Source of the DNA: a bacterium | GTDB lineage: Bacteria; Patescibacteriota; Minisyncoccia; Moranbacterales; UBA2206 | DNA: 64,000 nt | Assembly (NCBI GenBank): GCA_030654225.1 | Contig: JAURXY010000003.1 | Coordinates: forward strand, 16,056 to 80,055 | Direction: 5' to 3' | Shown: positions 1,640 to 57,496 of the stretch, piece by piece | Numbering within the stretch: the first letter of the stretch is position 1 | How the letters are laid out: each line of letters starts with the position of its first letter | Notes under the pieces: generated by a model | Told to the model about the DNA's origin: nothing | Database searches by the model: none | Seen by the model: the letters and a program-made list of their open reading frames with translations, nothing else | Position numbers and translations under genes: made by a program

Positions 1640-1654
1640 TGCAGGTGCGCTCGG

Positions 1655-1685
1655 TTGACAATTTTTTTTAGGGGAGTAATATAAT
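1655..1685 (+). promoter_or_regulatory. Sigma70-like promoter candidate (TTGACA-N17-19-TATAAT) upstream of the NuoB-like operon
   Basis: TTGACA at 1655-1660 followed by aatata/tataat at 1678-1685, in the 120-bp gap before the 1763 CDS. Confidence 0.3.
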
Positions 1686-1762
1686 AGGTGTTTGAGATAA
1701 AATAACTTGGTATATTTTAATTTCGGGTAATTCCGCTTTTTTATTTGTTTTAATTTTCTATT

Positions 1763-5893: not shown

Positions 5894-5917
5894 TTTATTT
5901 TTAAGTCTTAAATTTTT

Positions 5918-7399: not shown

Positions 7400-7408
7400 T
7401 TTTATTTT

Positions 7409-9091: not shown

Positions 9092-11551
9092 ATGGAAAAA
9101 TATAATCCTGAGATTATTGAGAGAAAATGGCAAAAATATTGGGCTAAAAACCCTGATAATTTTAGCGCTAAAGATGAATCGGGGCAGGAAAAAGCCTTTA
9201 TATTAGACATGTTTCCCTATCCGTCGGGGACAGGGCTTCATGTGGGGCATGTGGAGAGTTATACGGCAACAGACATATATTCAAGGTATCTTCGAATGAA
9301 CGGGAAAAACGTGCTTCATCCACAGGGTTTTGATGCCTTTGGGCTACCGGCGGAAAACTATGCGATAAAGACGGGAATTCATCCAAAAGAGACAATTTCC
9401 AACGCGGTGGAGGTTTTCAAGCGTCAAATTAATTCACTCGGTTTTTCTTATGATTGGTCGCGGGAAGTCAATTCATCAGATCCAAAGTATTATAAATGGA
9501 CACAGTGGTTGTTTTTGTTGTTTTATAAAAATGGTTTGGCGTACAAGAAAAAAGCCAAGGTGAATTGGTGCCCTAAATGTCAAACGGTTCTCGCGAATGA
9601 ACAGGCAGAAAATGGCAAGTGCGAAAGATGCGAATCGGAAGTTATTCAAAAAGATCTTGAGCAATGGTTTTTCAAAATTACCGACTTTGTCGAGGATAAG
9701 GGAAAAACTTCAGGACTACTTTCGGGACTGGAAAAAATTGATTGGCCAAATTCAACAAAATCATTGCAAAAAAATTGGATTGGAAAATCCGTTGGCGCGC
9801 AGTTCAAAATGCAAATTGAAAATACTGATAAGTTTATTGAAGTTTATACTACAAGAATCGATACTGTTTTTGGAATGACTTATGCGGTGGTGGCGCCGGA
9901 ACATGAAATTGTCGCTTCACTCCTCAAAGTCGAAAGTCGAAAGTCAAAAGTGAAAAGGGAAATTCAAAATTTAAAAATAGAAAATTCAGATGAGATAGGG
10001 AAGTATGTGGAAGCTTCAAAGAAAAAAACGGACCTTGATCGAATGGAAGCTAAAGAGAAGACCGGAGTAGAAATTAAGGGGATAAAAGTTATCAACCCAT
10101 TTAATGGTGAGGCGTTGTCACTGTTTGTAGCAGATTATGTTTTGTCGCAATATGGAACAGGAGCGGTGATGGCTGTGCCAGCGCATGACGAACGCGATTT
10201 TGAATTTGCGAAAAAATATAATTTAGAAATTAAAGAAGTTATTTCTGGTGATAAGAAAGACAAAGAAATACTTACTGATGATGGAATTTTGATAAATTCT
10301 ACTGAGTATAATAATTTAGAATCTGGTGAAGCTCGAGAAAAATTGACGGCGTGGCTAGAAGAGAAAAAAATTGGGCAAAGAAAAATAAATTATAAACTTC
10401 GTGATTGGTTGGTAAGTCGTCAAAGGTATTGGGGTGCGCCGATTCCGATAATTTATTGTGAAAAATGCGGTGAAGTGCCGGTGCCGGAAAAAGATTTGCC
10501 GGTTGAACTTCCGGATGATGTGGATTTCAAACCGACTGGAGAGTCTCCGCTAAAATATTCCAAAAAATTTCAAGAAGTTAAATGTCCGAAATGTGGAGGG
10601 GAAGCCAAAAGAGAATCGGATACAATGGATACCTTTGTTTGTTCCAGTTGGTACTATTTGCGCTACGCTGATTCAAAAAATGAAAAAGAATTTGCTTCCA
10701 AAGAAAAATTGGAAAAGTGGCTTCCGGTTGATCTTTATGTTGGCGGAGCGGAACACAGTGTGCTTCATCTTCTCTATGCTAGATTTTTCACCAAGGTTTT
10801 GCATAATTTGGGATACCTAAATTTTGACGAACCATTTTTGAAACTGCGTCACCAAGGAACAATTTTGGCAGAGGATGGAACAAAAATGTCAAAATCAAAA
10901 GGCAATGTAGTCAATCCAGATGATGTAGTGAAAGAATTTGGTGCTGATGCACTGCGAATTTTTGAAATGTTTATGGGACCATTGGAAGATATGAAACCTT
11001 GGCAGACCAAAGGCATTGTGGGCGTGTATAGATTTTTGGAAAAAACATGGAAAATGCAAACAAGAATCAATGATCAAGAAACAGGAGACAGCAAATTAAA
11101 TAATCTAATTCATAAGACTATCAAAAAAGTTGGTAAAGATATTGAAGAAATGAGATTTAATACTGCTATTTCGGCTCTAATGATTCTTGCTAATGAAATG
11201 GAAAAACAAGAAAAAATCCAAATTACTAATTACCAATTACTAATTACACTTTTATCTCCTTTCGCACCTCATCTTGCTGAAGAACTTTGGGAAAAGTTAG
11301 GACACAGTGAATCAATTTTCAAAGAAGAGTGGCCCACATATGATCCGGAAATGATTAAGGACGAAGAAATAGAGCTTATTATTCAAATCAACGGAAAAGT
11401 GCGCGATAAGATAATTGTGAGTGCGGATATTTCAGAAGACGAAGCGAAAACGATTGTGCTTGAAAGAGAAAAAGTTAAAAGTTATATATTGGGAAGGGAA
11501 ATTAGAAAGATCATATTTGTTAAGGGGAGATTAATTAATATTGTTTTTTAG
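9092..11551 (+). CDS. leuS: Leucyl-tRNA synthetase
   Basis: 819 aa with a HIGH-type motif (PYPSGTGLHVGHVESY), KMSKS, and editing and anticodon-binding regions collinear with LeuRS. Confidence 0.95.
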   Translation: MEKYNPEIIERKWQKYWAKNPDNFSAKDESGQEKAFILDMFPYPSGTGLHVGHVESYTATDIYSRYLRMNGKNVLHPQGFDAFGLPAENYAIKTGIHPKETISNAVEVFKRQINSLGFSYDWSREVNSSDPKYYKWTQWLFLLFYKNGLAYKKKAKVNWCPKCQTVLANEQAENGKCERCESEVIQKDLEQWFFKITDFVEDKGKTSGLLSGLEKIDWPNSTKSLQKNWIGKSVGAQFKMQIENTDKFIEVYTTRIDTVFGMTYAVVAPEHEIVASLLKVESRKSKVKREIQNLKIENSDEIGKYVEASKKKTDLDRMEAKEKTGVEIKGIKVINPFNGEALSLFVADYVLSQYGTGAVMAVPAHDERDFEFAKKYNLEIKEVISGDKKDKEILTDDGILINSTEYNNLESGEAREKLTAWLEEKKIGQRKINYKLRDWLVSRQRYWGAPIPIIYCEKCGEVPVPEKDLPVELPDDVDFKPTGESPLKYSKKFQEVKCPKCGGEAKRESDTMDTFVCSSWYYLRYADSKNEKEFASKEKLEKWLPVDLYVGGAEHSVLHLLYARFFTKVLHNLGYLNFDEPFLKLRHQGTILAEDGTKMSKSKGNVVNPDDVVKEFGADALRIFEMFMGPLEDMKPWQTKGIVGVYRFLEKTWKMQTRINDQETGDSKLNNLIHKTIKKVGKDIEEMRFNTAISALMILANEMEKQEKIQITNYQLLITLLSPFAPHLAEELWEKLGHSESIFKEEWPTYDPEMIKDEEIELIIQINGKVRDKIIVSADISEDEAKTIVLEREKVKSYILGREIRKIIFVKGRLINIVF

Positions 11552-13661: not shown

Positions 13662-15542
13662 ATGTGTGGAATTATTGCATATATTGGAAAACAAAAAGCT
13701 GTGCCGATTCTTTTAGAAGGACTCAAACAGCTGGAGTATCGTGGTTATGATAGCGCAGGAATTTCGGTTATTCAAAATGAAAAAATAATTACTTTGAAAG
13801 CAGTGGGGAAAGTAGTGGAATTGCAAAATAAAATTGGAGCACAAGATTTTCTCGGGAAAATTGGTATCGCTCATACTCGCTGGGCGACGCATGGCAAGCC
13901 AAGCGACAGAAATTCTCATCCGCATGGGGATTGCGAGAGTAATATTTTCTTGGTGCATAATGGAATAATTGAAAACTATCAAGATCTCAAAAAAATACTT
14001 CAAAAGAAAAAACATAAATTTGTTTCTGAAACTGATTCAGAAGTTTTGGCCCATCTCATTGAGGAATTTAACAAAAAACCCGCCTCGACTCGCGGGGACG
14101 CTTCGTCGACGCGAGGCGGGCTAGATTTCAAAAAATCAGTGCTGGAAGCTTTGAAACTTGTTCGGGGAACTTATGGCTTGGCGATTATAAATAAAAATGA
14201 GCCGGACAAGATAATCATTGCCAGAAATGGTTCTCCATTGATTTTGGGAATTGGCAAAGATGAATTTATCGTGGCGTCGGATGCTAGCGCTATTGTGCGC
14301 CACACCGACAAGGTGATTTATTTAGATGATGGAGAGATGGCTCAGATTAGTGCGGATGGTTTTGAAATTAGCAATATTAAAAACAAAATTGTTAGCAAAG
14401 AAATTTCCAAATTAAATTGGACACTGGAAGAATCAAAAAAGGGAGGATTTCCACATTTTATGCTCAAGGAAATTTTTGAGCAACCGGAAGTAATTGCCAA
14501 TGGTCTTCGTGGCAGAGTGGAACATTTTTTGTCGGAGGATAATTTTCCAATTCTTGGCGGGCTTCGTCCAATTGAAAAGAAATTGCGACGGATTAAAAAA
14601 ATTATCATTGTGGCTTGTGGCACTTCCTATTATTCCGGATTGGTGGGGGAATATATGCTCGAAGAATATGCTGGCATTCCAACGGAAGTGGAATACGCCA
14701 GCGAGTTTCGTTATCGAAAACCAATTCTAGATTCTTCGACAGCTGTAGTGGCTATTTCTCAATCAGGTGAAACAGCGGACACATTGGCGGCCATTCGTGA
14801 AGCTAAAAACAAGGGAGCGCTGACACTGGGAATTGTGAATGTGGTTGGTTCAACAATTGCGCGCGAAACTGATGCAGGAACGCATACACTATCTGGCCCT
14901 GAAATTGGAGTGGCTTCGACCAAAGCTTTCACTACACAGCTTGTAGTTTTGGTGCTGTGGACTTTGATGCTCGGACGACAAAGGGATATGTCGAGTGTAA
15001 TGAGCAAGAGAATTGCGCAGGAGCTAAAAAATATGCCAAAACTCATTGAGGGAATTTTGAAAAAATCAAAAGAAATAAAAAAGATTGCCAAGAAATATTC
15101 ATATGCCAAAGATTTTTTGTATCTTGGTAGGAAATATAACTTTCCAATTGCGTTGGAAGGAGCTTTGAAAATAAAAGAAATTTCCTATGTGCACGCAGAA
15201 GGATATGCGACAGGGGAGATGAAGCACGGACCGATTGCTCTCATTGAAGAAAATTTTCCTTCAATTTTCATTTGCCCGAAAGACAGTGTCTATGAAAAAA
15301 ATATTTCTGGTATGCAAGAAATAAAAGCGCGCGGTGGAAAAATAATTGCCATTGCCACGACGGGCGACAAAGAAATTGCGCGTATTGCCGATGACGTAAT
15401 TTATATTCCAAAAACTTTGGAAATGCTCACACCATTTATCTCGGTTATTCCTTTGCAACTTTTCGCCTATTATTTTGGTGTGGCCAAAGGATATGATGTG
15501 GACAAGCCAAGGAATCTTGCTAAATCAGTGACGGTGGAATAA
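13662..15542 (+). CDS. glmS: Glutamine--fructose-6-phosphate aminotransferase
   Basis: MCGIIAYIG (N-terminal Cys nucleophile) followed by two SIS domains, ending ..KSVTVE. Contains an in-frame GC-rich palindromic insertion encoding KKPASTRGDASSTRGGLD. Confidence 0.95.
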   Translation: MCGIIAYIGKQKAVPILLEGLKQLEYRGYDSAGISVIQNEKIITLKAVGKVVELQNKIGAQDFLGKIGIAHTRWATHGKPSDRNSHPHGDCESNIFLVHNGIIENYQDLKKILQKKKHKFVSETDSEVLAHLIEEFNKKPASTRGDASSTRGGLDFKKSVLEALKLVRGTYGLAIINKNEPDKIIIARNGSPLILGIGKDEFIVASDASAIVRHTDKVIYLDDGEMAQISADGFEISNIKNKIVSKEISKLNWTLEESKKGGFPHFMLKEIFEQPEVIANGLRGRVEHFLSEDNFPILGGLRPIEKKLRRIKKIIIVACGTSYYSGLVGEYMLEEYAGIPTEVEYASEFRYRKPILDSSTAVVAISQSGETADTLAAIREAKNKGALTLGIVNVVGSTIARETDAGTHTLSGPEIGVASTKAFTTQLVVLVLWTLMLGRQRDMSSVMSKRIAQELKNMPKLIEGILKKSKEIKKIAKKYSYAKDFLYLGRKYNFPIALEGALKIKEISYVHAEGYATGEMKHGPIALIEENFPSIFICPKDSVYEKNISGMQEIKARGGKIIAIATTGDKEIARIADDVIYIPKTLEMLTPFISVIPLQLFAYYFGVAKGYDVDKPRNLAKSVTVE

Positions 15543-15544
15543 TT

Positions 15545-15907
15545 ATGGATATTAGCTCAATCAAAAACACCCGAGAATTTTTTTGGACCAATCATTCTAA
15601 ATATAAACTTCTTCAATATGGCTTGAGTCCGACGGCAGTCAAGAGTGTTATCAGGCGACCTGATCGAACTGAAACCGGCATCGCGCCCAAAACTACGGCG
15701 GTGATGAAAAGGAAAGACACGAAAAAAACTAAAAAAGAGGTTTGGGTGATGATACAGAAACAAGGAACAAGAAACAAGGAACAAGAAACAAAAGAAAAAA
15801 ATACATCAAAAACAAAAATAATCTCGGCGTGGATTTATCCGGGGGTGAGTCCGAAAGGCAAGGATATTTATGTGCCGGAGGATGCGTGGGAGGCGCTCGA
15901 GATATAA
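15545..15907 (+). CDS. Hypothetical protein with low-complexity K/E/Q-rich insert
   Basis: 120 aa ORF translationally coupled to glmS. The insert QKQGTRNKEQETKEKNTSKTK is encoded by the acaaggaacaagaaacaag repeat. Confidence 0.4.
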   Translation: MDISSIKNTREFFWTNHSKYKLLQYGLSPTAVKSVIRRPDRTETGIAPKTTAVMKRKDTKKTKKEVWVMIQKQGTRNKEQETKEKNTSKTKIISAWIYPGVSPKGKDIYVPEDAWEALEI

Positions 15908-15928
15908 TTTTTTGTTTTTAATTAACTC

Positions 15929-16002
15929 GAATGCGCATTTTTTATCTAAAATTTTTCTAAGTTAATGGCTGATACGAAAAATTTTAGAAAAAATCCGCAT
16001 TC
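15929..16002. repeat. Long imperfect inverted repeat (~26-bp arms, 20-nt loop) in the intergenic region
   Basis: Left arm gaatgcgcattttttatctaaaattttt; right arm aaaaattttagaaaaaatccgcattc (its reverse complement with 3 mismatches). Confidence 0.7.
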
Positions 16003-16155
16003 TCAAACAGGAATTAAAAACAAAAAATTATCCCCCTCGCTTATATAGATAGGAAATGTTCAAGATTAACTCTTAAAATAGAGTTGAATTTTTTTGAAAA
16101 AATTGAAATTTCAAATTATGGCTTTATTTAAGGTAAAAAACTATATAGAATACTT

Positions 16156-17235
16156 ATGAATATCCAAAAAATCGAACAAATTCTAAAAGATCAGAAACAA
16201 CCAAAATTTCGGTTGGGGCAGATAAAAAAGGCCGTCTATCAAGATGGGATTTCGAGTTTTTCGGAAATTTCGACGATTCCGAAAGAGTTGAGAAGCGTTT
16301 TGGAAAAAGAGAAAATACTTTCATTTGAGGTGGAAAAGGTCTTGGTTTCCAAAGATGGTAATTCGGCTAAGGCACTCGTGAAATTGTCCGATGGCAACAA
16401 AATTGAAACAGTTTTGATTTCTCCAAAAGTTGATATTTGGTCAGTCTGCATTTCTTGCCAAGTTGGTTGTCCAATGAGTTGCGCTTTTTGTGCGACAGGG
16501 CAAGCGGGATTCAAAAGAAATTTGACGGCCGAAGAAATTGTTGATCAGGTTTTGTTTTGGAAACAATATTTGAAAAATGATTCAGCCCGCCCCCTCTCCT
16601 GTCGCGAGTACGCGACATCCTCTCCCAAAGGGAGAGGAGGCATATTGAATAATGTCGTCTATATGGGGATGGGGGAACCGTTTTTGAATTGGGAAGAGGT
16701 TTTAGAAAGTTTGAAAATATTATCTGATCCAAAAGGTATGGCTTTTGGTTCGCGTTCAATTTCAATTTCGACAGTGGGAATCCCTGGCGGGATAGAAAAA
16801 TTAACCGAAGATTTCCCACAAGTGAATCTGGCAGTGTCATTGCATTTTTCCCAAGATGAAAAAAGAGATGAGTTTATGCCGGCGAATAAAAATCTAAGTT
16901 TGGAAAAATTGAAAATTGAGTTGGAAAAATATTTCCAGATATCTAATCGAAAAGTTTTTTTGGAATATATTCTGTTTTCCAAAATTAATGATAGTGAGAA
17001 AGATGCTAAAAATTTATTAAAATATATTAACTCTTTCAAAAAATCGCAACTTTTGCATGTAAATTTGATTCGATACAATTCAACAGATAGTAAAGATAAG
17101 TTCATTTCTTCTAGCGCGGAACAAACCGTGAAATTTAGAAATTATCTACTTGAGAATAAAATTAACTGCACAATCAGAAGAAGCCTTGGTGCAGACATCG
17201 AAGGGGCTTGTGGGCAATTAGCAGGAAAAAAATAA
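16156..17235 (+). CDS. rlmN: 23S rRNA (adenine2503-C2)-methyltransferase, radical SAM
   Basis: CISCQVGCPMSCAFCATGQAGFKRNLTAEEI (CxxxCxxC radical-SAM motif plus the RlmN context) and C-terminal ..GACGQL. Contains an in-frame GC-rich palindromic insertion encoding SARPLSCREYATSSPKGRGG. Confidence 0.9.
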   Translation: MNIQKIEQILKDQKQPKFRLGQIKKAVYQDGISSFSEISTIPKELRSVLEKEKILSFEVEKVLVSKDGNSAKALVKLSDGNKIETVLISPKVDIWSVCISCQVGCPMSCAFCATGQAGFKRNLTAEEIVDQVLFWKQYLKNDSARPLSCREYATSSPKGRGGILNNVVYMGMGEPFLNWEEVLESLKILSDPKGMAFGSRSISISTVGIPGGIEKLTEDFPQVNLAVSLHFSQDEKRDEFMPANKNLSLEKLKIELEKYFQISNRKVFLEYILFSKINDSEKDAKNLLKYINSFKKSQLLHVNLIRYNSTDSKDKFISSSAEQTVKFRNYLLENKINCTIRRSLGADIEGACGQLAGKK

Positions 17236-17337
17236 AATCATTATATCACTTTTGTATTTTCTGTAATAAATTATGATGAACAATATTTTGCGGTCGCAAG
17301 AAATTGTTAATCACTATTTAAAGGGCAATGGCAAAAC

Positions 17338-17399
17338 AGAAGCTAAGCTTCGGGCTAACCCGAAGATTAGCTTCTGGAAGTTGATTGATTTCCTTTTTT
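17338..17399 (+). other. Nested perfect hairpin followed (after a gap) by a T-run. Terminator or structured leader between rlmN and dxs
   Basis: agaagctaa-gcttcggg-ctaa-cccgaag-a-ttagcttct (9-bp outer and 7-bp inner stems). ttcctttttt lies 18 nt downstream. Confidence 0.35.
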
Positions 17400-17414
17400 A
17401 GCGTAGAATAAAGA

Positions 17415-19283
17415 TTGCAAAATATGGAAGAAAAAAAGGCTAAAAAAATATTAGATGATATTAACTTTCCGGCGGATTTGAAAAAAACTCCGCCAGAAAA
17501 ATTGCCGGAACTTTGCGAAGAAGTCCGCAATTTTTTGATTGAGAGCGTTTCGCAATCTGGCGGACATTTTGGTTCAAATCTTGGAGTGGTGGAGCTCACA
17601 GTGGCTCTGCATTATACTTTTGATACCCCAAAAGACATTTTGATTTGGGATGTGGGTCATCAAGCTTATCCGCATAAAATGCTTACGGGGAGAAAAGATA
17701 AACTACATACTATTAGAAAATATGGCGGATTAGCCCCTTTTCCCAAAAAAACCGAAAGTGAATACGATGCGTGTAGTGTCGGTCACACTAGCACCTCAAT
17801 TAGTTCTGCTTGCGGTATGGCGCTTGCCAATAGAAACAAAAAAAATGCCCCACAAATTGTGGCAGTGATTGGAGATGGCGCACTGGCTGGAGGGATGGCG
17901 TTTGAAGCATTGAATCACGCGGGGGATGTTGGTGTCGATATGCTAGTGGTGCTCAACGACAATAAAATGTCGATTTCGCCCAATGTGGGTGGTTTGGAAA
18001 AATATCTGACAAAAATAATTTCATCATCTTCTTTTGTGAGCGTGCGCGAAAAAGGGCGGAAATTTTTCGGTCGGGTTCCAATTCTGGAAAAATTTTTGCG
18101 TCGAGCAGAAAAACAAGCCAAGGGAATGTTGGTGCCTTCCACGCTTTTTGAACAACTAGGTTTTGAATATTATGGGCCAATTGATGGGCATGATGTGAAA
18201 AATTTGGTGGAAGTTCTATCCAATCTAAAAAAGATTAGGGGTCCAAAATTTTTGCATGTAGTGACGACAAAGGGTAAGGGGTATGCGCAGGCCGAAAAGG
18301 ATGAATTTTCTTTGCACGCGGTGGCGCCTTTTGACTTGGAGACTGGCAAAAAAAATGGCAGTAGTACCAAAAAAATAACTTTCTCAGATGTTTTTTCTGA
18401 TTGGATTTGTGAAAAAGCGAGAAAAGATGAAAAGCTTCAGGCGATTACACCGGCAATGTGCGAGGGTTCAGGCCTTTCACAGTTTCGCAAAATTTTCCCT
18501 GAGCGTTTTCACGATGTAGGAATCGCTGAACAACACGCCGTCACTTTTTCGGCGGGTCTTTCTGCGCAAGGAGCCAAGCCGGTCGTTTCAATTTATTCTT
18601 CTTTTCTGCAAAGAGCCTATGATCAAATTATTCATGACGTGGCTTTGGAAAATATGGATGTGCTTTTTGCAATTGACAGAGCGGGCGTTGTGGGGCCGGA
18701 TGGTGCGACTCATAATGGCAGTTTTGATCTTTCATTTCTTCGGGCGGTCCCAAATTTAGTCATTATGGCGCCATCCTGCGAAAATGAATGCTTTGCTATG
18801 CTCAGTGCCGGATATAAGCATAAAGGGCCGGCGGTGGTGCGTTATCCTCGAGGAGGCGGAAGCGGAAAATATAATCAAGAGAAATATAATTCTCTCGAAA
18901 TTGGCAAAGCGAAAATTATTAGAGAAGGAAAAAAGGTGGCGATTTTGTCTTTTGGCACGATGCTAGAAAATTGCAAAAAAAACGCGGAAGAACTGGACGC
19001 GACCTTGGTGGACATGCGATTTGTCAAACCACTGGATGAAGAAATGCTGAAAAATTTAGCCGAGACGCATAAATATTTTGTCACCATCGAAGACAATACA
19101 ATTGCTGGCGGAGCAGGTAGTGCGGTTAACGAATTTTTAGCCAAAGAAAATTTGAAAGTGAAAGTTAAAAATCTTGGTCTTCCCGATAAATTTCTCGAAC
19201 ACGGAACCCGCGAAGAACTTCTCAAAGAAATTGGACTCGACGAAGAGGGGATTTTGAGAGTGGTTAAGAGTTTTATTTTATAA
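17415..19283 (+). CDS. dxs: 1-deoxy-D-xylulose-5-phosphate synthase
   Basis: 622 aa. GGHFGSNLGVVELTVALHYTFDTPKDILIWDVGHQAYPHK is the DXS TPP-binding N-terminal signature, followed by transketolase-like pyrimidine and C-terminal domains. Confidence 0.95.
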   Translation: MQNMEEKKAKKILDDINFPADLKKTPPEKLPELCEEVRNFLIESVSQSGGHFGSNLGVVELTVALHYTFDTPKDILIWDVGHQAYPHKMLTGRKDKLHTIRKYGGLAPFPKKTESEYDACSVGHTSTSISSACGMALANRNKKNAPQIVAVIGDGALAGGMAFEALNHAGDVGVDMLVVLNDNKMSISPNVGGLEKYLTKIISSSSFVSVREKGRKFFGRVPILEKFLRRAEKQAKGMLVPSTLFEQLGFEYYGPIDGHDVKNLVEVLSNLKKIRGPKFLHVVTTKGKGYAQAEKDEFSLHAVAPFDLETGKKNGSSTKKITFSDVFSDWICEKARKDEKLQAITPAMCEGSGLSQFRKIFPERFHDVGIAEQHAVTFSAGLSAQGAKPVVSIYSSFLQRAYDQIIHDVALENMDVLFAIDRAGVVGPDGATHNGSFDLSFLRAVPNLVIMAPSCENECFAMLSAGYKHKGPAVVRYPRGGGSGKYNQEKYNSLEIGKAKIIREGKKVAILSFGTMLENCKKNAEELDATLVDMRFVKPLDEEMLKNLAETHKYFVTIEDNTIAGGAGSAVNEFLAKENLKVKVKNLGLPDKFLEHGTREELLKEIGLDEEGILRVVKSFIL

Positions 19284-19665
19284 ACCCAAAATGTTTAAGT
19301 GTTGGTAGGATGTTTGGGGCAAGATCTTCTGGGAGATTATTGATATTTAGCCAGTCCCATTTTCGAATATCTTCTCCCGGAATTATTTCGCCAATTCTTT
19401 TGGCTAAAAAGTGAACCAAGATAACATCGAAATTCCCCTCGGGGGTTTCTTTTTTTGTGTGAAGTAGGAATGGTTTTTCGTCTAAAATTTCAATTTCAAT
19501 TCCTAATTCTTCTTTAGATCTTCTTTTTGCAGTTTCAATCAAGCTTTCATTTTCTTGAATTTTTCCACCACAAAATTTCCAAATATCTTCTTTATAATCT
19601 TTATCTAATAAGACTTTATTATTTTCCACGATCACTGGACCAGACGCGATGATTATTTTTGGCAT
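19273..19665 (-). CDS. NUDIX hydrolase
   Basis: 130 aa with a Nudix box (GGKIQENESLIETAKRRSKEELGIE). Confidence 0.8.
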   Translation of the reverse strand: MPKIIIASGPVIVENNKVLLDKDYKEDIWKFCGGKIQENESLIETAKRRSKEELGIEIEILDEKPFLLHTKKETPEGNFDVILVHFLAKRIGEIIPGEDIRKWDWLNINNLPEDLAPNILPTLKHFGFIK

Positions 19666-19701
19666 ATTTTTTATGAAATTAAAAATTATTTAGGTTTTAA
19701 T

Positions 19702-20736
19702 TTAAAATTTACCAATAGCATTGAAAAAAATAATAGATGCCCATAATAAAACAATAAAAACAAAAAATATTTTGTTGGATATACTCATCTTCTCTGATGC
19801 CTTAAAAATATCAATAAAGTATTTAATAGAAAATACAAAAAATACAAAAAACATTAATGGAATAGAGAGATAAAATATATTTGCTTCGCTGGGGCAGGTT
19901 TCCATTAAGCGACAGGACCCTATATTTTTTAGATAAATTAATGCAATTAAAGAATATATAACAAATATACCACTTATTAACACTAAATTACGCACATTTT
20001 TCTTGAGGGATATATTTGCACCAATAATTTTTTGTTGAGATGTTTGAGGTATAAAATAGGTCAATAGTGAAAAAATAATAATAACTAAGATAATGGAATA
20101 TAAATTTTGCTGGCTTTTTCCTGAAAAAAAGTATGAACCACATGATTTTATAGTATTATTAGATTTCTTGCATGCGTTGCTGTTTCTTGCTGTAATGGAA
20201 CAATTATCAAGGCAACTATCTTTATGAAGGCGACCAAATGAGGAAGTTTTCAAATTATCACAAAAATCACAATTGTTTTTTATTTTTGCTAATCTTATGC
20301 TCGTTCCTTCAATACAGTGTTCTACTGCAGCTTGTTTATCAAAAGCAGTGCTTTCTTTTGTTGGTTCGCCATATAGATTGATTGTGAATGTTGCGGGAAA
20401 AGCATTGATTGTTTGATTGCAAAAAGAGATATCATTTTTCTGGGTGGCAAAGTACGCATAACAATTCCCAACTGTTTCATAGGAAGATCGATTATGGCTA
20501 CGGTTATAGGCTAAAGTATCTTCAGATATATTGCAATCAAGAATGTTGGAAAATTCTTTGCTTACTTTATATCTATCTGAGCCGTAGTCGGATATGTTAT
20601 TATTATTTTTTTTGGAATTTATAAAAAAAGCTATCAATAAGCTTATAATAAAAATTGAAGAAACGAAAACAATCTTTATTAGCTGTTCCTTCTTGTTATT
20701 TGGGGAATAATTAAAATTTTGATTTATTTGTTCCAT
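19702..20736 (-). CDS. Hypothetical Cys-rich membrane protein
   Basis: 344 aa. N-terminal TM helix, a Cys-rich presumed extracytoplasmic region, and several C-terminal TM helices. No recognisable catalytic motif. Confidence 0.45.
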   Translation of the reverse strand: MEQINQNFNYSPNNKKEQLIKIVFVSSIFIISLLIAFFINSKKNNNNISDYGSDRYKVSKEFSNILDCNISEDTLAYNRSHNRSSYETVGNCYAYFATQKNDISFCNQTINAFPATFTINLYGEPTKESTAFDKQAAVEHCIEGTSIRLAKIKNNCDFCDNLKTSSFGRLHKDSCLDNCSITARNSNACKKSNNTIKSCGSYFFSGKSQQNLYSIILVIIIFSLLTYFIPQTSQQKIIGANISLKKNVRNLVLISGIFVIYSLIALIYLKNIGSCRLMETCPSEANIFYLSIPLMFFVFFVFSIKYFIDIFKASEKMSISNKIFFVFIVLLWASIIFFNAIGKF

Positions 20737-20766
20737 AATTTTGAAATTAAAAATAAATTTTTACAG

Positions 20767-21396
20767 TTATTTTTTAAAACTTAATTCACTAACGGATTCT
20801 TCAATTGCTTTTCTAATTATTTTTTCTAATTTTGAATAATTATGATCATCTGCAAGTTGCAAAGCTTTGATATAATTATTTCTTCCTGAAATTGTTTCGA
20901 CTTTTAGTTCGATTGGTGGCAAGTTTAAATTAAGTAGAATAATATTATTTAACAATCTGCCGATTCTCCCATTATAATCTTGAAACGGATGAATCCAAGA
21001 AAATCTATGATGTGCCCAAGCGATTAAAAAAATCAATTCATCGAGAAATTTACTGTCATCAATTTTTGGCAAATGGTGCGTTCTTATTTGCAAGTCTTGA
21101 GTAAATTCAAGCATAAGTTGCGGTACCAAATAAAATTTCGGTGGGATATGCTTTGAAACCTTAACTTCAATGTTTCGATATTGGCCACCCATTTTTGGAA
21201 AAATCCAATTAAAGCCAATTTTGTGAATTTGCTTTATGAATTCTGGCGTGAGAGGCAAATTGCCTTTTTCGTTTTCTTGCAAAATAAAATCCCATGCCTT
21301 CTTTATTCCTTCAATTTCTAAAGGAATTAATTTGGAGCGTGGGATAATACCGAAAGACGTTTCTTTGTAGCTGGTTTCGCCTTTTCTTTTTTTCAT
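20767..21396 (-). CDS. Fic/DOC family protein
   Basis: HPFQDYNGRIGR matches the FIC motif HPFx[DE]GNGRxxR (G to Y at position 6). Confidence 0.8.
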   Translation of the reverse strand: MKKRKGETSYKETSFGIIPRSKLIPLEIEGIKKAWDFILQENEKGNLPLTPEFIKQIHKIGFNWIFPKMGGQYRNIEVKVSKHIPPKFYLVPQLMLEFTQDLQIRTHHLPKIDDSKFLDELIFLIAWAHHRFSWIHPFQDYNGRIGRLLNNIILLNLNLPPIELKVETISGRNNYIKALQLADDHNYSKLEKIIRKAIEESVSELSFKK

Positions 21397-21406
21397 CGTA
21401 TTGAAA

Positions 21407-21583
21407 TTAAGCTTTTTGCAAAACTTTTTTTACCATTTTTTGCGTTACTTCAGAATTTTCACTTTTAGTCGTTCGATAAACCATTTTATTTATAAACATA
21501 CCAAAATAATCCTGACGCATTTTGCTTTTTGCTGGGGATTTTTGAAAACTTTTTAAAATTTGAATCATTTGTTGTTTTGACAT
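21407..21583 (-). CDS. Small ORF (58 aa) upstream of fic. Candidate FicA/VbhA-like antitoxin
   Basis: The minus-strand ORF MSKQQMIQILKSFQKSPAKSKMRQDYFGMFINKMVYRTTKSENSEV... contains TTKSEN, matching the [ST]xxxE[GN] inhibitory motif of class I Fic antitoxins. It lies 10 bp upstream of the fic gene on the same strand and is absent from the ORF track because it is under 60 aa. Confidence 0.4.
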   Translation of the reverse strand: MSKQQMIQILKSFQKSPAKSKMRQDYFGMFINKMVYRTTKSENSEVTQKMVKKVLQKA

Positions 21584-21631
21584 ATCTTAAGATTAGCATA
21601 ATTAGCTTGCCTTGTCCATTTTTTTAGGAGG

Positions 21632-23254
21632 CTATATTTTCTTCACCATATAACTATCTTTCAATTTATACCCCAATTTTCGATAATATCCACGCACGCC
21701 GACGCCGGAAATTACTACAATTCTATCAAGCCCAAATTCTTTTTTGGTGATTTTTTCGGCCTCGAGGATTAGTTTTTTTCCAAGACCGATGTGTTGAGGA
21801 GAAATATTATCTTTTTGGTTGATCTGATTCATTTTACCATAAGTATGCACTTCTCTTATTATAGCAGAATTTTTTAGAACATTCGGGGCTATGCTTTTTT
21901 CGTTATTTATTCTTAGGCGTAAAAGTGCGAAAAGCTTAGACCTCACCCCAGCCCTCTCCTTATCAAGGAGAGGGAGCGTTGAATATTCTAAAAATATTTC
22001 TTGGCCGTCGCTGGAGGGATAGTCAATGCGATGCAAAATTATTTTTTCTTTGAGACTATAATCGGATCGCACTTCACGACAACGAATGCAAGGGCAGGTG
22101 GAATTTTTGGCGATTAGTTGGCGGAGATTGGAAACTTTTGGTCCGGCGATAATGGAACTTTCGGGTACATCACGCACCAGGCGAGAGATGCGAATATAAG
22201 GTGGAATAATTTCATTTTTAACGCGCAGGATAAATTTTTCAAAACTTTTGTCGGTGAGTGCTTTATATTTCCCGGCTTTCCATATTTTATACAGTGGACT
22301 TTGGCGAATAACGACAGTCGGATAAATCTTGAGCATATCAGGTTGGAAATTATGATCAGAAAAAAGTTTTTCAAACATTTGAAAATCTTTTTTGATGCTG
22401 GAGCCGAGAAGCCCTGGCATAATATGATAGTTGATTTTGAAACCAAAATCTTTGAGCAGTTTTGTAGCTTCGATAGTTCTTTGGACATTGTGTCCGCGTT
22501 TATTTTTTTCTAATACATCGTCAAAAATACTTTGCACCCCGAGTTCCACTCGAGTGCATCCAAGATTTCTAAAATTAATCAATTCTTCTGCGTCGATATA
22601 ATCCGGTCGTGTTTCCAGTGTCAGTCCGATTATTCTATGTTTAGCCGTCTCGTTTTTCTTCTGTTCCGTTTTTAATTTTATTTCAATATTGTTTCTTGTT
22701 TCTTGATTCTTGTTTCTTGATTTCGGATAATCATTACAAGCCCGAAAACACTCCAAAACAAATTTATTTTGATAACTTTTTGGCAGATAGGAAAAAGTTC
22801 CGCCCATCACGATAATCTCTATTTTGTCAGTTTTGTGGCCGTTGAGTTCTAGGGCGTGAATTCTTCTTTGCACTTGAAGATAAGGATTAAATTTAGCGGA
22901 AATGGCGCGCATCACAGCTGGTTCATTTGAGAGATAGCTTTTGGGCATTTCCACTTCATCGGGGCAATAAATGCATTTGCCTGGACAAGGATAACTTTTA
23001 GTAAGCACTGCCACCACAGCCACGCCAGAATCGGTGCGAATTTTTTTGCTAAAAAGGCAATTTTCTAAATCCGGATTGCGTTTGATTTTTTTTTGAGTAA
23101 TCATTTTTTCATAAAGTTCGCGAATGTCAGCGTTGGTTGGGAGTGGCAGTCCCAAATTTTTGCAAATTTCTTTTTTGCGTTTCAAAAAGAGCTCAGGATT
23201 TGAAATCTTGGTTTGGGTTGCTAGTTTTATGAAATTGTCATAGGATTTAAGCAT
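21632..23254 (-). CDS. elp3: Elp3-like tRNA uridine(34) modification enzyme (radical SAM + GNAT acetyltransferase)
   Basis: 540 aa. Radical-SAM core (CPGKCIYCPDE) and C-terminal GNAT (HIGLGKKLILEAEKITKKEFGLDRIVVISGVGVRGYYRKLGY). Contains two in-frame repeat or palindrome insertions. Confidence 0.85.
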   Translation of the reverse strand: MLKSYDNFIKLATQTKISNPELFLKRKKEICKNLGLPLPTNADIRELYEKMITQKKIKRNPDLENCLFSKKIRTDSGVAVVAVLTKSYPCPGKCIYCPDEVEMPKSYLSNEPAVMRAISAKFNPYLQVQRRIHALELNGHKTDKIEIIVMGGTFSYLPKSYQNKFVLECFRACNDYPKSRNKNQETRNNIEIKLKTEQKKNETAKHRIIGLTLETRPDYIDAEELINFRNLGCTRVELGVQSIFDDVLEKNKRGHNVQRTIEATKLLKDFGFKINYHIMPGLLGSSIKKDFQMFEKLFSDHNFQPDMLKIYPTVVIRQSPLYKIWKAGKYKALTDKSFEKFILRVKNEIIPPYIRISRLVRDVPESSIIAGPKVSNLRQLIAKNSTCPCIRCREVRSDYSLKEKIILHRIDYPSSDGQEIFLEYSTLPLLDKERAGVRSKLFALLRLRINNEKSIAPNVLKNSAIIREVHTYGKMNQINQKDNISPQHIGLGKKLILEAEKITKKEFGLDRIVVISGVGVRGYYRKLGYKLKDSYMVKKI

Positions 23255-23427
23255 GGGGGGAGTTGGGGAATTGAATAATTAAAATTTTCTCTAAATTAAA
23301 CTCGAGTCCTAGAAATTCTTGCCAAAATTTTTCTGACAACCAACGGCGGAAACAGAAAAATTTTGGATAATTTCTGGACTCTCAAGCAGTAATTTATCGA
23401 AAATTTTAATCATTCAATTTATTTATT

Positions 23428-25988: not shown

Positions 25989-26552
25989 ATGAAAAAAACA
26001 TTGCTAATTTTGGGGGTAGTCGTAGTTATTGTTGGTGGTTATATTTGGCTAACGTATAATAAACTCATAACTGCCAATGAAAACATTGACAATCAATGGG
26101 CGCAAGTGGAAACGCAATATCAAAGACGAATAGATTTAATTCCAAATCTTGTTGAGTCCGTTAAGGGCGTGATGAATCAAGAACAAAAAATATTTGGTGA
26201 TTTAGCTGAGGCTAGAACTCGCTATGCAGGCGCAACAAATGCTAATCAGAAAGTTGAAGCTGCTACTCAAGTGGATAGCGCTTTTGCTAGACTTTTAGCA
26301 GTAATGGAAAATTATCCACAATTAAAATCATCCGATAATGTACAAACACTCATGGCGCAATTAGAAGGAACAGAGAATAGAATTAGCGTTGAAAGAAAAA
26401 GATATAATGATTCAGTCAAAGATTTCAATGTTATGATCAAAAGAATTCCAGACAAATGGATTGCAAATTCTTTAGGATTTTCAGAAAAAAATTATTTTGA
26501 AGCTACGAAGGGATCTGAAAATGCTCCAAAGGTTGATTTAAAAAACAACTAA
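25989..26552 (+). CDS. lemA: LemA family protein
   Basis: N-terminal TM helix then NENIDNQWAQVETQYQRRIDLIPNLVESVKG, characteristic of the LemA family. Confidence 0.85.
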   Translation: MKKTLLILGVVVVIVGGYIWLTYNKLITANENIDNQWAQVETQYQRRIDLIPNLVESVKGVMNQEQKIFGDLAEARTRYAGATNANQKVEAATQVDSAFARLLAVMENYPQLKSSDNVQTLMAQLEGTENRISVERKRYNDSVKDFNVMIKRIPDKWIANSLGFSEKNYFEATKGSENAPKVDLKNN

Positions 26553-26555
26553 AAA

Positions 26556-27575
26556 ATGATTTCTAGAATCATAAAATTTTCGCTACTTCTTTTTATATTT
26601 TTTGCTTTTCCAGTAAAAGCTTATTATAATCCGGGAACTCCAACCGGATTTGTTAATGATTATGCAGGAATATTAAGCGCAGAACAAAAACAAACGCTGG
26701 AAAGCAAGCTTTCACAATTTGAAAAAAACTCAAGCAATGAAATTTCTGTGGTGACTGTCCCAAGCTTGAAGGATGATACAGTTGAAAATTTTGCAGTTGA
26801 ACTTTTCAAGGACTGGGGCATTGGCAAAAAAGATAAAGATAATGGCGTGTTGGTTTTGGTCGCACTTTCTGACAAGAAAATGAGAATTGAGGTTGGCTAT
26901 GGTCTAGAAGGCACGCTTACGGATGCACAGGCTAGCTGGATAATTAGCGATATAATGAGACCAGCTTTTCAAAAAAGTGATTATTATTCTGGAATAAATG
27001 GAGCAGTGGATAAAATTGTTGCTTCAATTAACGGAGAAAATATTATTCTTCAAGATGCTAAGCAAAAAGTAAAAATTCAAGAGATAGAAAAAAAATTAAG
27101 AGAGTCGCAACCGATTGTTGATTCTGTATATTCAATAAAACATCCCATTGGAATCCTAGGTGTTCTGCAATTTATTATTGGGATTCTTTTGTTAACACTT
27201 CTTTTGATAACTGTTTATTCTGGATTTTATATTCCTTATATATTAGTAAGGTTAATTCTTGGTGTATTAGGTAAAAATAAAAGCTGGGTAGCAGGTGGGA
27301 TATTCGGAGGAATGATTGGAACTTCAATTGGAATTTTAAAAGAAAGTTTGTATAATGGATTACTTTGGTCTTTTATTCTTATACCAATTAGCCTTCTGCT
27401 TGATTTTTATCTTTCGAAATATAATACATTTTGGAAAAAAGATCTTAAGAGCTTATTAAAAACAAAAGGTGGTAAAAAAGGTGGATTTTGGTCAGGAGGG
27501 TCCTCCGGTGGTGGAGGTTTTGGTGGATTTGGTGGCGGGAGTTCCGGAGGCGGAGGCGCTAGCGGAGGTTGGTAA
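26556..27575 (+). CDS. TPM-domain protein with C-terminal TM segments and Gly-rich tail
   Basis: Signal/TM then YAGILSAEQKQTLESKL...SVVTV...GVLVLVALSDKKMRIEVGYGLEG (TPM fold signature). The C-terminus reads GGSSGGGGFGGFGGGSSGGGGASGGW. LemA-TPM pairs are a common gene neighbourhood. Confidence 0.8.
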   Translation: MISRIIKFSLLLFIFFAFPVKAYYNPGTPTGFVNDYAGILSAEQKQTLESKLSQFEKNSSNEISVVTVPSLKDDTVENFAVELFKDWGIGKKDKDNGVLVLVALSDKKMRIEVGYGLEGTLTDAQASWIISDIMRPAFQKSDYYSGINGAVDKIVASINGENIILQDAKQKVKIQEIEKKLRESQPIVDSVYSIKHPIGILGVLQFIIGILLLTLLLITVYSGFYIPYILVRLILGVLGKNKSWVAGGIFGGMIGTSIGILKESLYNGLLWSFILIPISLLLDFYLSKYNTFWKKDLKSLLKTKGGKKGGFWSGGSSGGGGFGGFGGGSSGGGGASGGW

Positions 27576-27634
27576 ATATGATATACTAAATTTAGAAGGA
27601 AGGTAGTATTTAATTAAAATAATTTAATAAAAAA

Positions 27635-28192
27635 ATGAAGATCTCAATGAGCAAAACGAGGGAACAGTTCCCCCTGAGTACGAAAAAAGTTCTCAAGAAA
27701 ACCGTAGCAGGAACATTAATTTGGTCAATATTATTATTTATAATCTGGCTTTTTGTCACTGTTGCTGTTGTTGTAAATAATAAAAGCTCTGCGGGGATAG
27801 CAGGAATAATAACATTGGCAATCTTTGGATTAATGGCCTTAATTATATTCGGGACATATTTTTATCAAAAGTGGTATTATTCGGTGTATTTTTATGATCT
27901 TACGGATGATTTTATTATCATTAAAAAAGGACCAATCACACCAAGCGAAATTACAATTCCATACGAAAGAGTGCAGGATGTTTATGTCGATCAGGATTTA
28001 CTGGATAGATTATTTGGAATTTATGATGTTCATTTGTCTAGTGCGACGATTTCCTCTGGCATGGAAGCTCATATAGATGGTGTAGAAAAAGTGGCGGCCG
28101 ATGGTTTGCGTGGATTTTTATTACAAACTGTTCAACAAAAAATTGGTAGAAAAAATAATCAAAATTTAAACAATAATCAACCTAATCAATAA
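27635..28192 (+). CDS. Membrane protein with bacterial PH (bPH_2/YdbT-like) domain
   Basis: Two TM helices then ITIPYERVQDVYVDQDLLDRLFGIYDVHLSSA, typical of bPH_2/DUF304. Confidence 0.6.
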   Translation: MKISMSKTREQFPLSTKKVLKKTVAGTLIWSILLFIIWLFVTVAVVVNNKSSAGIAGIITLAIFGLMALIIFGTYFYQKWYYSVYFYDLTDDFIIIKKGPITPSEITIPYERVQDVYVDQDLLDRLFGIYDVHLSSATISSGMEAHIDGVEKVAADGLRGFLLQTVQQKIGRKNNQNLNNNQPNQ

Positions 28193-28196
28193 AAAT

Positions 28197-28748
28197 ATGG
28201 AAAATATTTCACAAGTAATAACAGAAAAAAATTATCCCATCACAAAGCTTTGGATTTTTAAAGCCCCTATCATTATCATTTTATTAAATGTGGTTGCTTT
28301 ATTTTTTGGTTATTATTTTCCTTATCTTGTTTTAGCTATACCTATTATGTTAATTGTTAATCCTCTAATTAGAGCAAATTTTCATTATTCACTGGATGAT
28401 AAATTTTTCGATATAAAACAAGGAGTTATATCAAAAAAGCGAAGAAGCTTGCCTTATGGAGTTATTCAGAATGTTTTTGTTAAACAAGATTTATTTGATA
28501 GAATTTTTGGATTGGCTACTTTGAGAGTTGAAAACGCTTCGCAGGCAGGTGGTGGCAGTGGTGAACGCTGGTGGAACAAGAGCTATGGTTCAAAAGCTAC
28601 TGCTTATGGACAAAATGAGGGCGTTGGTTCTTCTGGGAATAAAGTGAATATCCCAGGACTTAAGAAACAAAACGCAGAAGACTTAAAAAGTTATATTCTT
28701 CAAAAGATAAAAGAAAATCCAATTGAAGATAGCCAATCAGGATTATAA
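28197..28748 (+). CDS. Membrane protein with bacterial PH (bPH_2/YdbT-like) domain, paralog
   Basis: Two TM helices then LPYGVIQNVFVKQDLFDRIFGLATLRVENA. Paralogous to the preceding gene. Confidence 0.6.
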   Translation: MENISQVITEKNYPITKLWIFKAPIIIILLNVVALFFGYYFPYLVLAIPIMLIVNPLIRANFHYSLDDKFFDIKQGVISKKRRSLPYGVIQNVFVKQDLFDRIFGLATLRVENASQAGGGSGERWWNKSYGSKATAYGQNEGVGSSGNKVNIPGLKKQNAEDLKSYILQKIKENPIEDSQSGL

Positions 28749-42214: not shown

Positions 42215-42377
42215 ATTTATAGTTAAAAATCGTACATTAAAAATCCAACCAAAACTCGATTGCCCGGTTTTTGCCTTTAGTTAGTGATCTAATTTGAGGC
42301 AGAAATCGGGGAATTGAAAAACTGAAATGGCCATTTCGGCCGAATTTTAATTTAATGTTATTTTGAGGAGATGAAAA

Positions 42378-43110: not shown

Positions 43111-43150
43111 AAGAGGGCTCGCGTTGTAGTATCGCGCGAGCCCTCTTTTT
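43111..43150 (+). terminator. Rho-independent terminator
   Basis: GC-rich 13-bp stem aagagggctcgcg/cgcgagccctctt followed by a T-run. Confidence 0.7.
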
Positions 43151-43206: not shown

Positions 43207-43245
43207 GATGCGCTTGCCTGCCGGTAGGCAGGAATCTACGAATAT
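43207..43245 (+). promoter_or_regulatory. Dispersed ATGCG/AATCTACGAAT element interrupted by a 20-bp perfect hairpin
   Basis: gatgcg-[cttgcctgccggtaggcagg]-aatctacgaatat. The hairpin cctgcc/ggcagg is inserted between the motif halves. Located 20 nt upstream of the 43266 gene. Confidence 0.5.
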
Positions 43246-51825: not shown

Positions 51826-51839
51826 ATTAAAATAACAGA

Positions 51840-51915
51840 AAAATACAGAATACAACAGAATAACACAGAAAAAATTCTGTGTCGTTCTGAAAAATTCTGT
51901 GTCGTTCTGAAAATT
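51840..51915 (+). repeat. Intercistronic repeats before rpoA: 8-bp hairpin plus a 20-bp direct repeat x2
   Basis: acacagaa-aaaa-ttctgtgt hairpin, then (aaaaattctgtgtcgttctga)x2. Confidence 0.7.
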
Positions 51916-57494: not shown

Positions 57495-57496
57495 CT

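Follow-up and report, generated by a model that had tools for sequence, protein, structure and literature searches.

Short GC-rich palindromes, probably mobile elements tolerated in frame, in housekeeping genes of Moranbacteria and related Parcubacteria

Three housekeeping genes, glmS, rlmN and elp3, carry short GC-rich palindromes in frame in a 64-kb stretch of a Moranbacterales genome (contig JAURXY010000003.1 of assembly GCA_030654225.1, positions 16,056 to 80,055; 64,000 nt, hereafter the window). These inserts are likely dispersed palindromic elements of mobile type that are tolerated within reading frames, and they belong to at least two or three element families, not to one. A first-pass annotation of the window had described them as a single phenomenon in a genome of ~35% GC and compared them with the Rickettsia palindromic elements (RPEs). 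The coordinates, sequences and translations that it gave are correct (Table 1), and the window has 35.8% GC; its treatment of the three inserts as one kind of element did not hold. The closest named relatives of the window, by RlmN homologue search, are Candidatus Moranbacteria and Parcubacteria, and the same search gave an NCBI MAG protein with 100% identity to the window RlmN. Contigs of relatives and of metagenomes compared with the window are labelled L001, L002 and so on, and the syntenic ones were compared at 82-88% nucleotide identity. As an alignment to orthologs was expected to show, all three segments are gaps against solved homologues and are present in some of these relatives and absent from others.

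In glmS, the element folds with a 9-bp outer stem plus inner pairing. The window GlmS (MDO9230912.1) matches Escherichia coli GlmS with E = 2.6e-155, and the insert falls in an alignment gap. The 14 codons between K139 and L154 are missing in L001, L002 and L004, whose GlmS proteins are 94-97% identical. The empty site reads AACAAAAA(A/G)|CTAGAT, and in the DNA exactly 42 nt are cleanly inserted there. When metagenomes were scanned with 24 nt of the element, 25 contigs from about ten JGI projects were returned; the chance expectation for a 24-mer match is essentially zero. Every match belongs to one 42-nt unit with the consensus CCCGCCTCGACTCGCGGAGACGCTTCGTCGACGCGAGGCGGG. Similarity ends sharply at its CCCGCC and GGCGGG termini, beyond which different sites have unrelated flanks. 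The terminal inverted repeats of this 42-mer are CCCGCCTCG/CGAGGCGGG; both ends are paired, the interior is asymmetric and CGTC occurs only internally. Among the 22 listed copies (<=3 mismatches to the consensus), 13 are identical to it over all 42 nt, and the window copy has one mismatch.

After removal of duplicates and orthologous contigs, ~21 independent sites of the 42-mer remain across the metagenome contigs, 17 of them (~80%) within open reading frames (ORFs). The elements would land in genes about as frequently as random insertion predicts. The coding hosts, named from their translations without a domain search, are LeuRS, TrpRS (three sites), PNPase, the ATP synthase gamma subunit (AtpG), UvrA, UvrB, GatB, TatD, RfbB, LigT, ribosomal protein S2, an M23 peptidase, a glycosyltransferase, GlmS and others. 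Three orthologous TrpRS genes (76-79% identical) carry one 42-mer each, at different positions, and each position is empty in the other two; all three are insertions of exactly 42 bp. The hosts span 31-49% GC. The 42-mer hardly varies between lineages in which orthologous proteins share just 38-75% identity, which points to horizontal spread, to strong constraint imposed by a recognition machinery, or to both of these. Some host proteins are named Candidatus Moranbacteria, and the closest named relatives of the UvrB of L036 are Paceibacterota, Parcubacteria and Taylorbacteria; judged from these names, the element hosts are Moranbacteria and Paceibacteria-type Parcubacteria. Two further observations concern this family. 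In L030 (5335-6430), a 43-nt variant (GCGAATGACGC) makes the TGA that ends a dnaX-like ORF inside the element, so that an element copy may provide the stop codon of a truncated DnaX. In addition, AT-rich TACGAA/TTCGTA repeat arrays occur in relatives, and the 42-mer is nested within them in L034 and L039.

The rlmN element begins with a left flank, CCCGCCCCCTCTCC, and continues with hairpin 1 (TGTCGCG-AGTA-CGCGACA, 16600-16617) and hairpin 2 (TCCTCTCCC-AAA-GGGAGAGGA, 16618-16638). It is an alignment gap against the solved Cfr/RlmN homologues. In an AlphaFold model of the window RlmN based on a 42-sequence alignment (mean predicted local distance difference test score, pLDDT, 87.9; predicted template modelling score, pTM, 0.88), residues 143-159, which are the insert, form the sole segment with pLDDT <50, and the model places them between helix 125-140 (alpha1) and strand 163-169 (beta2) of the radical-SAM barrel. 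The loop placement proposed for the inserts is thus borne out by the predicted RlmN structure, and the GlmS and Elp3 inserts sit in gaps against solved structures. The double hairpin occurs at the orthologous rlmN site in the window, L001, L011, L018, L019 and L020; L019 has it also in dxs, as a 20-residue insertion and hence a non-orthologous copy. This site, after FWKQYLK, is a hypervariable hotspot with inserts of ~0-45 residues in 42 Moranbacteria homologues. L011 carries the double hairpin plus a nested 21-nt hairpin (CCTGCCTCGCCGGCAGGCGGG), L004 an unrelated 44-nt perfect palindrome, and L002, L007, L009 and L012-L014 carry AT-rich inserts of K/N/Q type. The nested insertion in L011 and the unrelated palindrome in L004 indicate repeated hits at permissive loops. 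A second hypervariable RlmN site lies after RYNST (alignment columns ~395-430; window residue ~312), where homologues P0007, P0009, P0091 and P0114 have 10-27 extra residues.

The third host encodes an Elp3-family protein. Elp3 is uncommon in bacteria; the Moranbacteria genome of the window and its relatives encode a full-length member of the family. The insert contains a 10-bp hairpin at 21952-21974 (CCCTCTCCTT-ATC-AAGGAGAGGG) encoding TLPLLDKERAG, and the segment that differs from empty alleles runs from 21944 to 21982 and encodes STLPLLDKERAGV. It is an alignment gap against archaeal and Dehalococcoides Elp3. The window, L002/L003 and L009 have the insert, whereas L001 and L004 lack it; its distribution does not follow overall relatedness, because L001 is the closest relative and yet is empty. 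The 34-nt pattern, CCCTCTCCTTNATAAGGAGAGGGYTGGGGTGAGG, recurs exactly at a non-orthologous locus, L034 10836-10869, upstream of an hrcA-like ORF. The core CCTCTCC/GGAGAGG is common to the rlmN and elp3 hairpins, as the first-pass annotation had noted. Furthermore, elp3 of L001 has, at a different site, a distinct in-frame insert of 105 nt (9922-10026, corresponding to window position 22047), which encodes LPAMLRSLNNSDDNISSQKLKSKQQNKYSIAMQAG and has GC-rich terminal inverted repeats, CCTGCCCGCAATGC.../...GCATCGCAGGCGGG, around an AT-rich centre. With its ends CCTGCC.../...GGCGGG, it looks like a larger, MITE-like relative of the small modules (MITE, miniature inverted-repeat transposable element).

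Related copies at other loci, which had been predicted for a dispersed element, are therefore found for all three inserts: the 42-mer at ~21 sites, the double hairpin in dxs of L019 and the elp3 motif in L034. Other dispersed families occur in the relatives. In L004, the palindrome GGGACTAAGTCCCC-AANT-GGGGACTTAGTCCC stands both in atpD, as GTKSPNGDLVPK, and in rlmN, as GTKSPIGDLVPR, and UvrA of L028 has a close variant of it. In L011, the 21-mer CCTGCCTCGCCGGCAGGCGGG occurs in rlmN and in an upstream small ORF and is read LPRRQAG in both, and a 19-mer of it is also intergenic in L002/L003. The glmS 42-mer, the 21-mer and the 105-nt element of L001 have CCYGCC...GGCGGG ends in common, and on this likeness they may form one superfamily. 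Intergenic palindromes of the type GTCATTCTGAGCG.../...CGCTCAGGATGAC, with short GC hairpins nested inside, were seen in relatives, as were CCTAACATCGGATGTTAGG hairpins in L002/L003 and L011; together with the TACGAA/TTCGTA arrays, these intergenic repeats lie at L002 10940-11230, L011 1-120, L001 13132-13187 and in the flanks of L034 and L039. Viral contigs were scanned for a phage vector and gave no evidence of one: the 42-mer core and the elp3 motif had no match there, the 19-mer had one intergenic match in a contig of 39% GC, and the rlmN hairpin-2 pattern had one irrelevant match in a contig of 70% GC.

Within the window, the inserts are among the most stable folds. Sliding 50-nt RNA folds over the whole window had a mean of -6.0 kcal/mol (sd 3.5), with the 0.1 percentile at -23.8 and the 0.5 percentile at -17.9 kcal/mol. 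The corresponding values were -28.1 kcal/mol for glmS, -26.9 for rlmN and -18.5 for elp3; the glmS and rlmN sites are the second and fifth most stable of all window positions, and the elp3 site is in the top 0.5%. DNA folds compared with dinucleotide shuffles gave z = -2.4 (glmS), -6.0 (rlmN) and -3.8 (elp3). Perfect GC-rich stem/loop records of >=7 bp numbered 13 (~9 distinct hairpins) in the window and 0-4 in ten Markov shuffles, and of 60 GC-rich perfect hairpins in 436 kb scanned, 41 lie inside ORFs. Intragenic hairpins need not all be elements, judging by a control in mnmA: the strong hairpin at 38524-38542, near the 5' end of the gene and in the match to the tRNA_Me_trans HUP domain, showed no sign of insertion, though none of the relatives compared covers that part.

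The remaining top hairpins of the window are mostly intergenic and terminator-like. Two intergenic hairpins (Table 1) had been regarded as comparable with the inserts, and the comparison stands for one of them. The module at 43217-43232 recurs at L001 12252, L004 9855, L033 4430 and L035 2723, and the L033 copy falls inside an ORF, where it gives the peptide SLPAGRQA. The hairpin upstream of it is most likely an intrinsic terminator, and its membership of the element families is not supported; the automated terminator scan overlooked it because its loop is longer than the 8-nt limit of the scan. Hairpins at 42261-42310 (-28.4 kcal/mol, downstream of alaS) and 17331-17380 (-27.6 kcal/mol, downstream of rlmN) are intergenic and of moderate GC, and small indels separate the window from relatives at the latter. 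Between elp3 and a methyltransferase gene, an AT-rich intergenic segment of 133 nt (23268-23400) that is missing in L003 folds as a long imperfect hairpin (-34.5 kcal/mol; arms GAGTCCTAGAAATT...CAGAAAAATTTTGG) and may represent a divergent promoter/operator or else a MITE-like element rich in AT. In the rpsD-rpoA interval (51836-51909) there is an imperfect inverted repeat of CAGAA/TTCTG units with 35-nt arms, 74% complementary.

Table 1. Host genes, palindromic elements and intergenic hairpins of the window (positions count from its first nucleotide).
Feature	Position	Strand	Description
glmS	13662..15542	+	Glutamine-fructose-6-phosphate aminotransferase, 626 aa; Pfam GATase_6/7 and SIS domains
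42-nt GC-rich palindromic element in glmS	14079..14120	+	CCCGCCTCGACTCGCGGGGACGCTTCGTCGACGCGAGGCGGG; encodes residues 140-153, PASTRGDASSTRGG
rlmN	16156..17235	+	Radical-SAM 23S rRNA/tRNA A-C2 methyltransferase, 359 aa; domain and homologue searches
Double-hairpin element in rlmN	16585..16640	+	GC-rich run; encodes SARPLSCREYATSSPKGRGG, ~residues 144-162
elp3	21632..23254	-	Elp3-family radical-SAM/acetyltransferase, 540 aa; E = 7e-114 to archaeal Elp3
34-nt element in elp3	21941..21974	-	Gene strand CCCTCTCCTTGATAAGGAGAGGGCTGGGGTGAGG
GC hairpin followed by TTTTT	43113..43150	+	Hairpin 43113-43145; -27.5 kcal/mol; ends ...GAGCCCTCTTTTTGCG; directly after ORF 42378-43100
Intergenic GC hairpin module	43217..43232		CCTGCC-GGTA-GGCAGG (CCTGCCGGTAGGCAGG); copies in relatives

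The hairpins might be explained as selected structural or regulatory features, with a function in each host gene for the encoded loop or for the hairpin in mRNA or DNA, for example in translational pausing between folding units, as an RNase or regulatory site, or in a protein-protein contact. We consider this improbable, and it is rlmN that speaks for it. The double hairpin is kept there at one site in genomes whose RlmN is just 59-64% identical to that of the window, and from these comparisons the insert is old. Both stems are kept by compensatory changes; the stem of hairpin 1 occurs as GTCGCG/CGCGAC, GCCCCG/CGGGGC, GCTCCG/CGGAGC and GGCGC/GCGCC (read from per-sequence folds only; MAFFT aligned the stems of unequal length inconsistently). 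In addition, the insert DNA is more conserved than the surrounding gene, 86% vs 64% to L018 and 95% vs 83% to L011, which is not expected of an element that is purely selfish and decays neutrally; any one of concerted evolution with other copies, selection on the hairpin and re-insertion into an element already present could account for it. However, the elements also recur in intergenic DNA and in genes unrelated to one another, close relatives differ in having or lacking them without any other change, and RlmNs that are 82-85% identical carry quite different sequences at the rlmN site. The Rfam scan of the whole window matched only a tRNA-Leu and nothing at the inserts, the insert is predicted to be disordered, and maintained stems are also expected for mobile palindromes and under concerted evolution among copies.

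Local production of the palindromes at fragile loop-coding sites (template switching, snap-back synthesis or slippage), with no mobile family involved, is very unlikely, and for the glmS element it is already largely refuted. It would suit the rlmN site and other K/N/Q-rich loops, which are indel hotspots with many unrelated inserts, and the nesting of palindromes in palindromes in L011. It would also suit elp3, where in L001 and L004 12 nt (TNQD) replace the 39 nt of the window and no clean insertion is seen. Such events cannot, however, yield one 42-nt sequence at so many unrelated sites over such a range of GC content, nor identical 19-21-mers and 34-mers at unrelated loci, and the inserts have no sequence in common with their flanks.

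The reading of the inserts as dispersed, mobile-type elements agrees with the manner in which the coding copies are read. The 42-mer is 14 codons long, and TAA, TAG and TGA are absent from all six frames. At the 17 coding sites, 13 copies read PASTRGDASSTRGG and four read (x)PPRVDEASPRVEAG, and none uses any of the other four frames; under uniform frame use, the probability of two of six frames at 17 sites is (1/3)^17, ~8e-9. All coding copies are 42 nt long, a multiple of three (3n), and open, and two of the four non-coding copies are 43 nt. These constraints on frame and length indicate selection on the translated product and argue against bypass or excision, and the inserts are apparently translated as extra peptide. 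That they are instead removed from mRNA or protein, or bypassed by the ribosome as in the Magnusiomyces byp elements and T4 gene 60, is therefore hard to credit. The analogy is close, since byps are short hairpin inserts derived from GC clusters in coding regions of an AT-rich genome; skipping, though, would predict no selection of frame or length, and only two mild, low-Arg frames are used. Furthermore, the inserts are 9-20 residues long and have no match in Rfam, and the 14-residue insert has no intein or intron features. An artefact of assembly or binning (chimeric joins, sequencing artefacts) deserves the least credence of all: every sequence comes from metagenome-assembled genomes (MAGs) or metagenome contigs, and hairpins can produce library artefacts, but the rlmN insert appears in the independent assemblies of the window (an NCBI MAG) and L001 (JGI), the elp3 insert in the window, the ENA contigs L002/L003 and L009, the 42-mer in 25 contigs of several projects, and every copy keeps the frame of a gene that is otherwise intact.

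The decay of the inserts can also be followed. The element is complete in the UvrB of L036; in two UvrBs that share 95% identity with the L036 protein, a remnant shortened by 8 residues, PASSADA, is left, and UvrBs 71-75% identical to that protein have nothing at this position. This series of full, remnant and empty alleles points to insertion followed by in-frame partial deletion, and a decayed remnant that is still in frame fits a translated sequence. We propose that each of the three inserts is a copy of a miniature palindromic repeat, GC-rich and non-autonomous, of a kind that would spread within and between Parcubacteria genomes. Copies in essential genes would persist by virtue of their 3n length, the lack of a stop triplet in any frame and the mildness of their peptides. 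The surviving frames would be those encoding small, polar peptides rich in Gly, Ser, Pro and Ala, probably placed as disordered surface loops, and copies in the four Arg-rich frames would be purged by selection. After insertion, in-frame partial deletion and overwriting by new insertions would then lead to hypervariable loop hotspots such as the rlmN site.

Mobilisation is the most speculative step. No target-site duplication was found at glmS, in the three TrpRS comparisons of filled and empty sites, or in 22 flank pairs. The elements would probably be mobilised in trans, by an enzyme, encoded by the host or by a mobile element, that recognises on single-stranded DNA the hairpin or the CCCGCC...GGCGGG termini. 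The leading candidate may be a REP/RAYT-like or IS200/IS605-like HUH enzyme (REP, repetitive extragenic palindromic; IS, insertion sequence), because the REP/RAYT and IS200/IS605 systems also give no target-site duplication; any specific mechanism is tentative at present. Several results weigh against the elements being mobile. A Pfam scan of 56 window ORFs found no transposase, RAYT, integrase or reverse transcriptase, and there is no obvious mobilising gene among the ORFs around four intergenic copies. Enzymes of the IS200/IS605 type normally require a defined target tetra- or pentanucleotide, and the 22 flank pairs show no target motif except a weak preference for A at +2 (14/22). The copy number of the 42-mer appears low, with a single one in ~293 kb of unselected Moranbacteria DNA. 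To these must be added the conservation of the rlmN insert above that of its gene and the replacement, not clean insertion, at elp3. The window encodes DprA, and a role as DNA-uptake sequence was considered for the elements and rejected: they are clean 42-nt insertions and not short motifs built by point mutation.

Among known systems, RPEs are the closest analogue of these elements of the candidate phyla radiation (CPR). RPEs are dispersed palindromes of ~100-150 bp found in frame in unrelated Rickettsia housekeeping genes (PMC10969869, summarising Ogata et al., 2000), and a 2024 review of MITEs continues to present their in-frame palindromic insertion as the exception (PMC10969869). Both are dispersed palindromic repeats that stand in frame in housekeeping genes unrelated to one another, in a bacterium with a small genome, both are translated as an extra peptide compatible with the fold (here judged from the frames), and no associated transposase is known for either. 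The likeness drawn in the first-pass annotation is sound to this extent. In contrast to RPEs, however, the CPR elements are far smaller (21-50 nt, with the glmS element at 42 nt), strongly GC-rich in a 36% GC genome, stop-free in six frames and nested, and their hosts are CPR/Patescibacteria, not Alphaproteobacteria (Rickettsiales); size and host set them apart, and no homology was shown.

REPs have been described inside genes in several phyla, and REPs of the CGTC type lack a known transposase (Di Nocera et al., 2013; PMC3733652). Like REPs and REPINs, the CPR elements are imperfect palindromes of 20-40 nt with fixed ends, occur as several families per genome and cause no target-site duplication. 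Some REPs lie inside genes, notably those for replication and repair, and UvrA and UvrB are among the hosts here; as with CGTC-type REPs, no dedicated transposase is known. REPs are overwhelmingly extragenic and of high copy number, whereas ~80% of the sites here are intragenic and copy number is seemingly low. Furthermore, the conserved unpaired GTAG/CGTC end tag is lacking, the ends CCCGCC...GGCGGG being paired, and neither a RAYT nor any HUH transposase was found by Pfam among the 56 window ORFs. The CPR elements thus behave like RPEs and like intragenic REPs, and by size, tags, location and host are members of neither. MITEs such as Correia, Nezha and ERIC are likewise short and non-autonomous, end in terminal inverted repeats, vary from strain to strain and are sometimes joined in frame to ORFs. 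The CPR elements are several times smaller and do not belong with the MITEs, because they lack a target-site duplication; MITEs normally duplicate their target and derive from an identifiable IS, and neither was seen in the window or the inspected loci.

The GC clusters of yeast mitochondria and the byp elements may be compared as functional analogues. They too are GC-rich mobile palindromes of a very AT-rich genome, with nested or composite organisation, and can reside in protein-coding sequence (var1; byps). They differ in being mitochondrial and eukaryotic, and byps are bypassed by the ribosome, whereas translation is indicated here. No description of such CPR elements or of the 42-mer sequence was found in the literature, of which our coverage was incomplete.

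The gene content of the window is ordinary housekeeping. It includes atpC, an Mrp/Mbh-like module, leuS, a glmU-like gene, glmM, glmS, rlmN, dxs, a NUDIX gene, elp3, parAB, relA, topA, dprA, mnmA, alaS, tyrS, a ribosomal protein/rpoA cluster, and restriction-modification and Fic genes. Three gene blocks are missing at the corresponding places in syntenic relatives: 617-8971 in the atpC-leuS interval (a CsoSCA-like protein and a complex-I/Mrp-Mbh-like module), 19702-21396 between the NUDIX gene and elp3 (a 344-aa protein of no known family and Fic), and 25989-28748 in the parB-relA interval (LemA, TPM and two bPH_2 proteins). Fic proteins are encoded at 20767-21396 and 54777-55922. A defence cluster at 56271-59745 comprises an EcoRI-type adenine methyltransferase, an adjoining 288-aa protein and a GmrSD-N/HNH protein; the 288-aa protein has no Pfam match and is possibly the cognate endonuclease. 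LeuRS varies in length, with 819 aa in the window (leuS, 9092-11551), 864 aa in L002 (1249-3843) and 975-990 aa in L004 (2412-5381), L020 (3450-6377) and L019 (4254-7226). The extra segment in L004 and L020 matches a NUDIX domain and is apparently a whole inserted domain, and the LeuRS of L002 has a palindromic insert of the type GTCATTCTGAATGAAGCGGAG.../...CGCTCAGGA near window position 9812.

The broader reading is that CPR genomes host an undescribed class of ultra-small (21-50 nt) "ORF-compatible" mobile elements, which colonise essential genes about as readily as intergenic DNA and are GC-rich, 3n in length, stop-free in six frames and precisely bounded, with no target duplication or motif. 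We hold the case for such a class, traits included, to be evenly balanced. If it exists, the near-invariance of the 42-mer would imply an unknown conserved mobilising activity or horizontal spread. Together with the sharp ends and the lack of target duplication, this near-invariance points to a mobilising enzyme. Apart from the question of such a class, the inserts illustrate a simple design rule for selfish DNA in coding sequence: 3n, GC-rich (and therefore stop-free), with peptides rich in Gly, Ser, Pro and Ala. They can serve as markers of strain-level polymorphism, and they also cause annotation and alignment artefacts in CPR MAGs. With them the RPE phenomenon, hitherto essentially restricted to Rickettsia, would reach a distant phylum, in elements of a far smaller size. 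The CPR/Patescibacteria account for much of bacterial diversity, and unexplained insertions specific to particular lineages are a known feature of their proteins. Tiny palindromes in essential genes, tolerated as disordered loops, would offer a concrete mechanism for part of this pattern and, if the class is real, may be a main source of hypervariable loop insertions in CPR housekeeping proteins.

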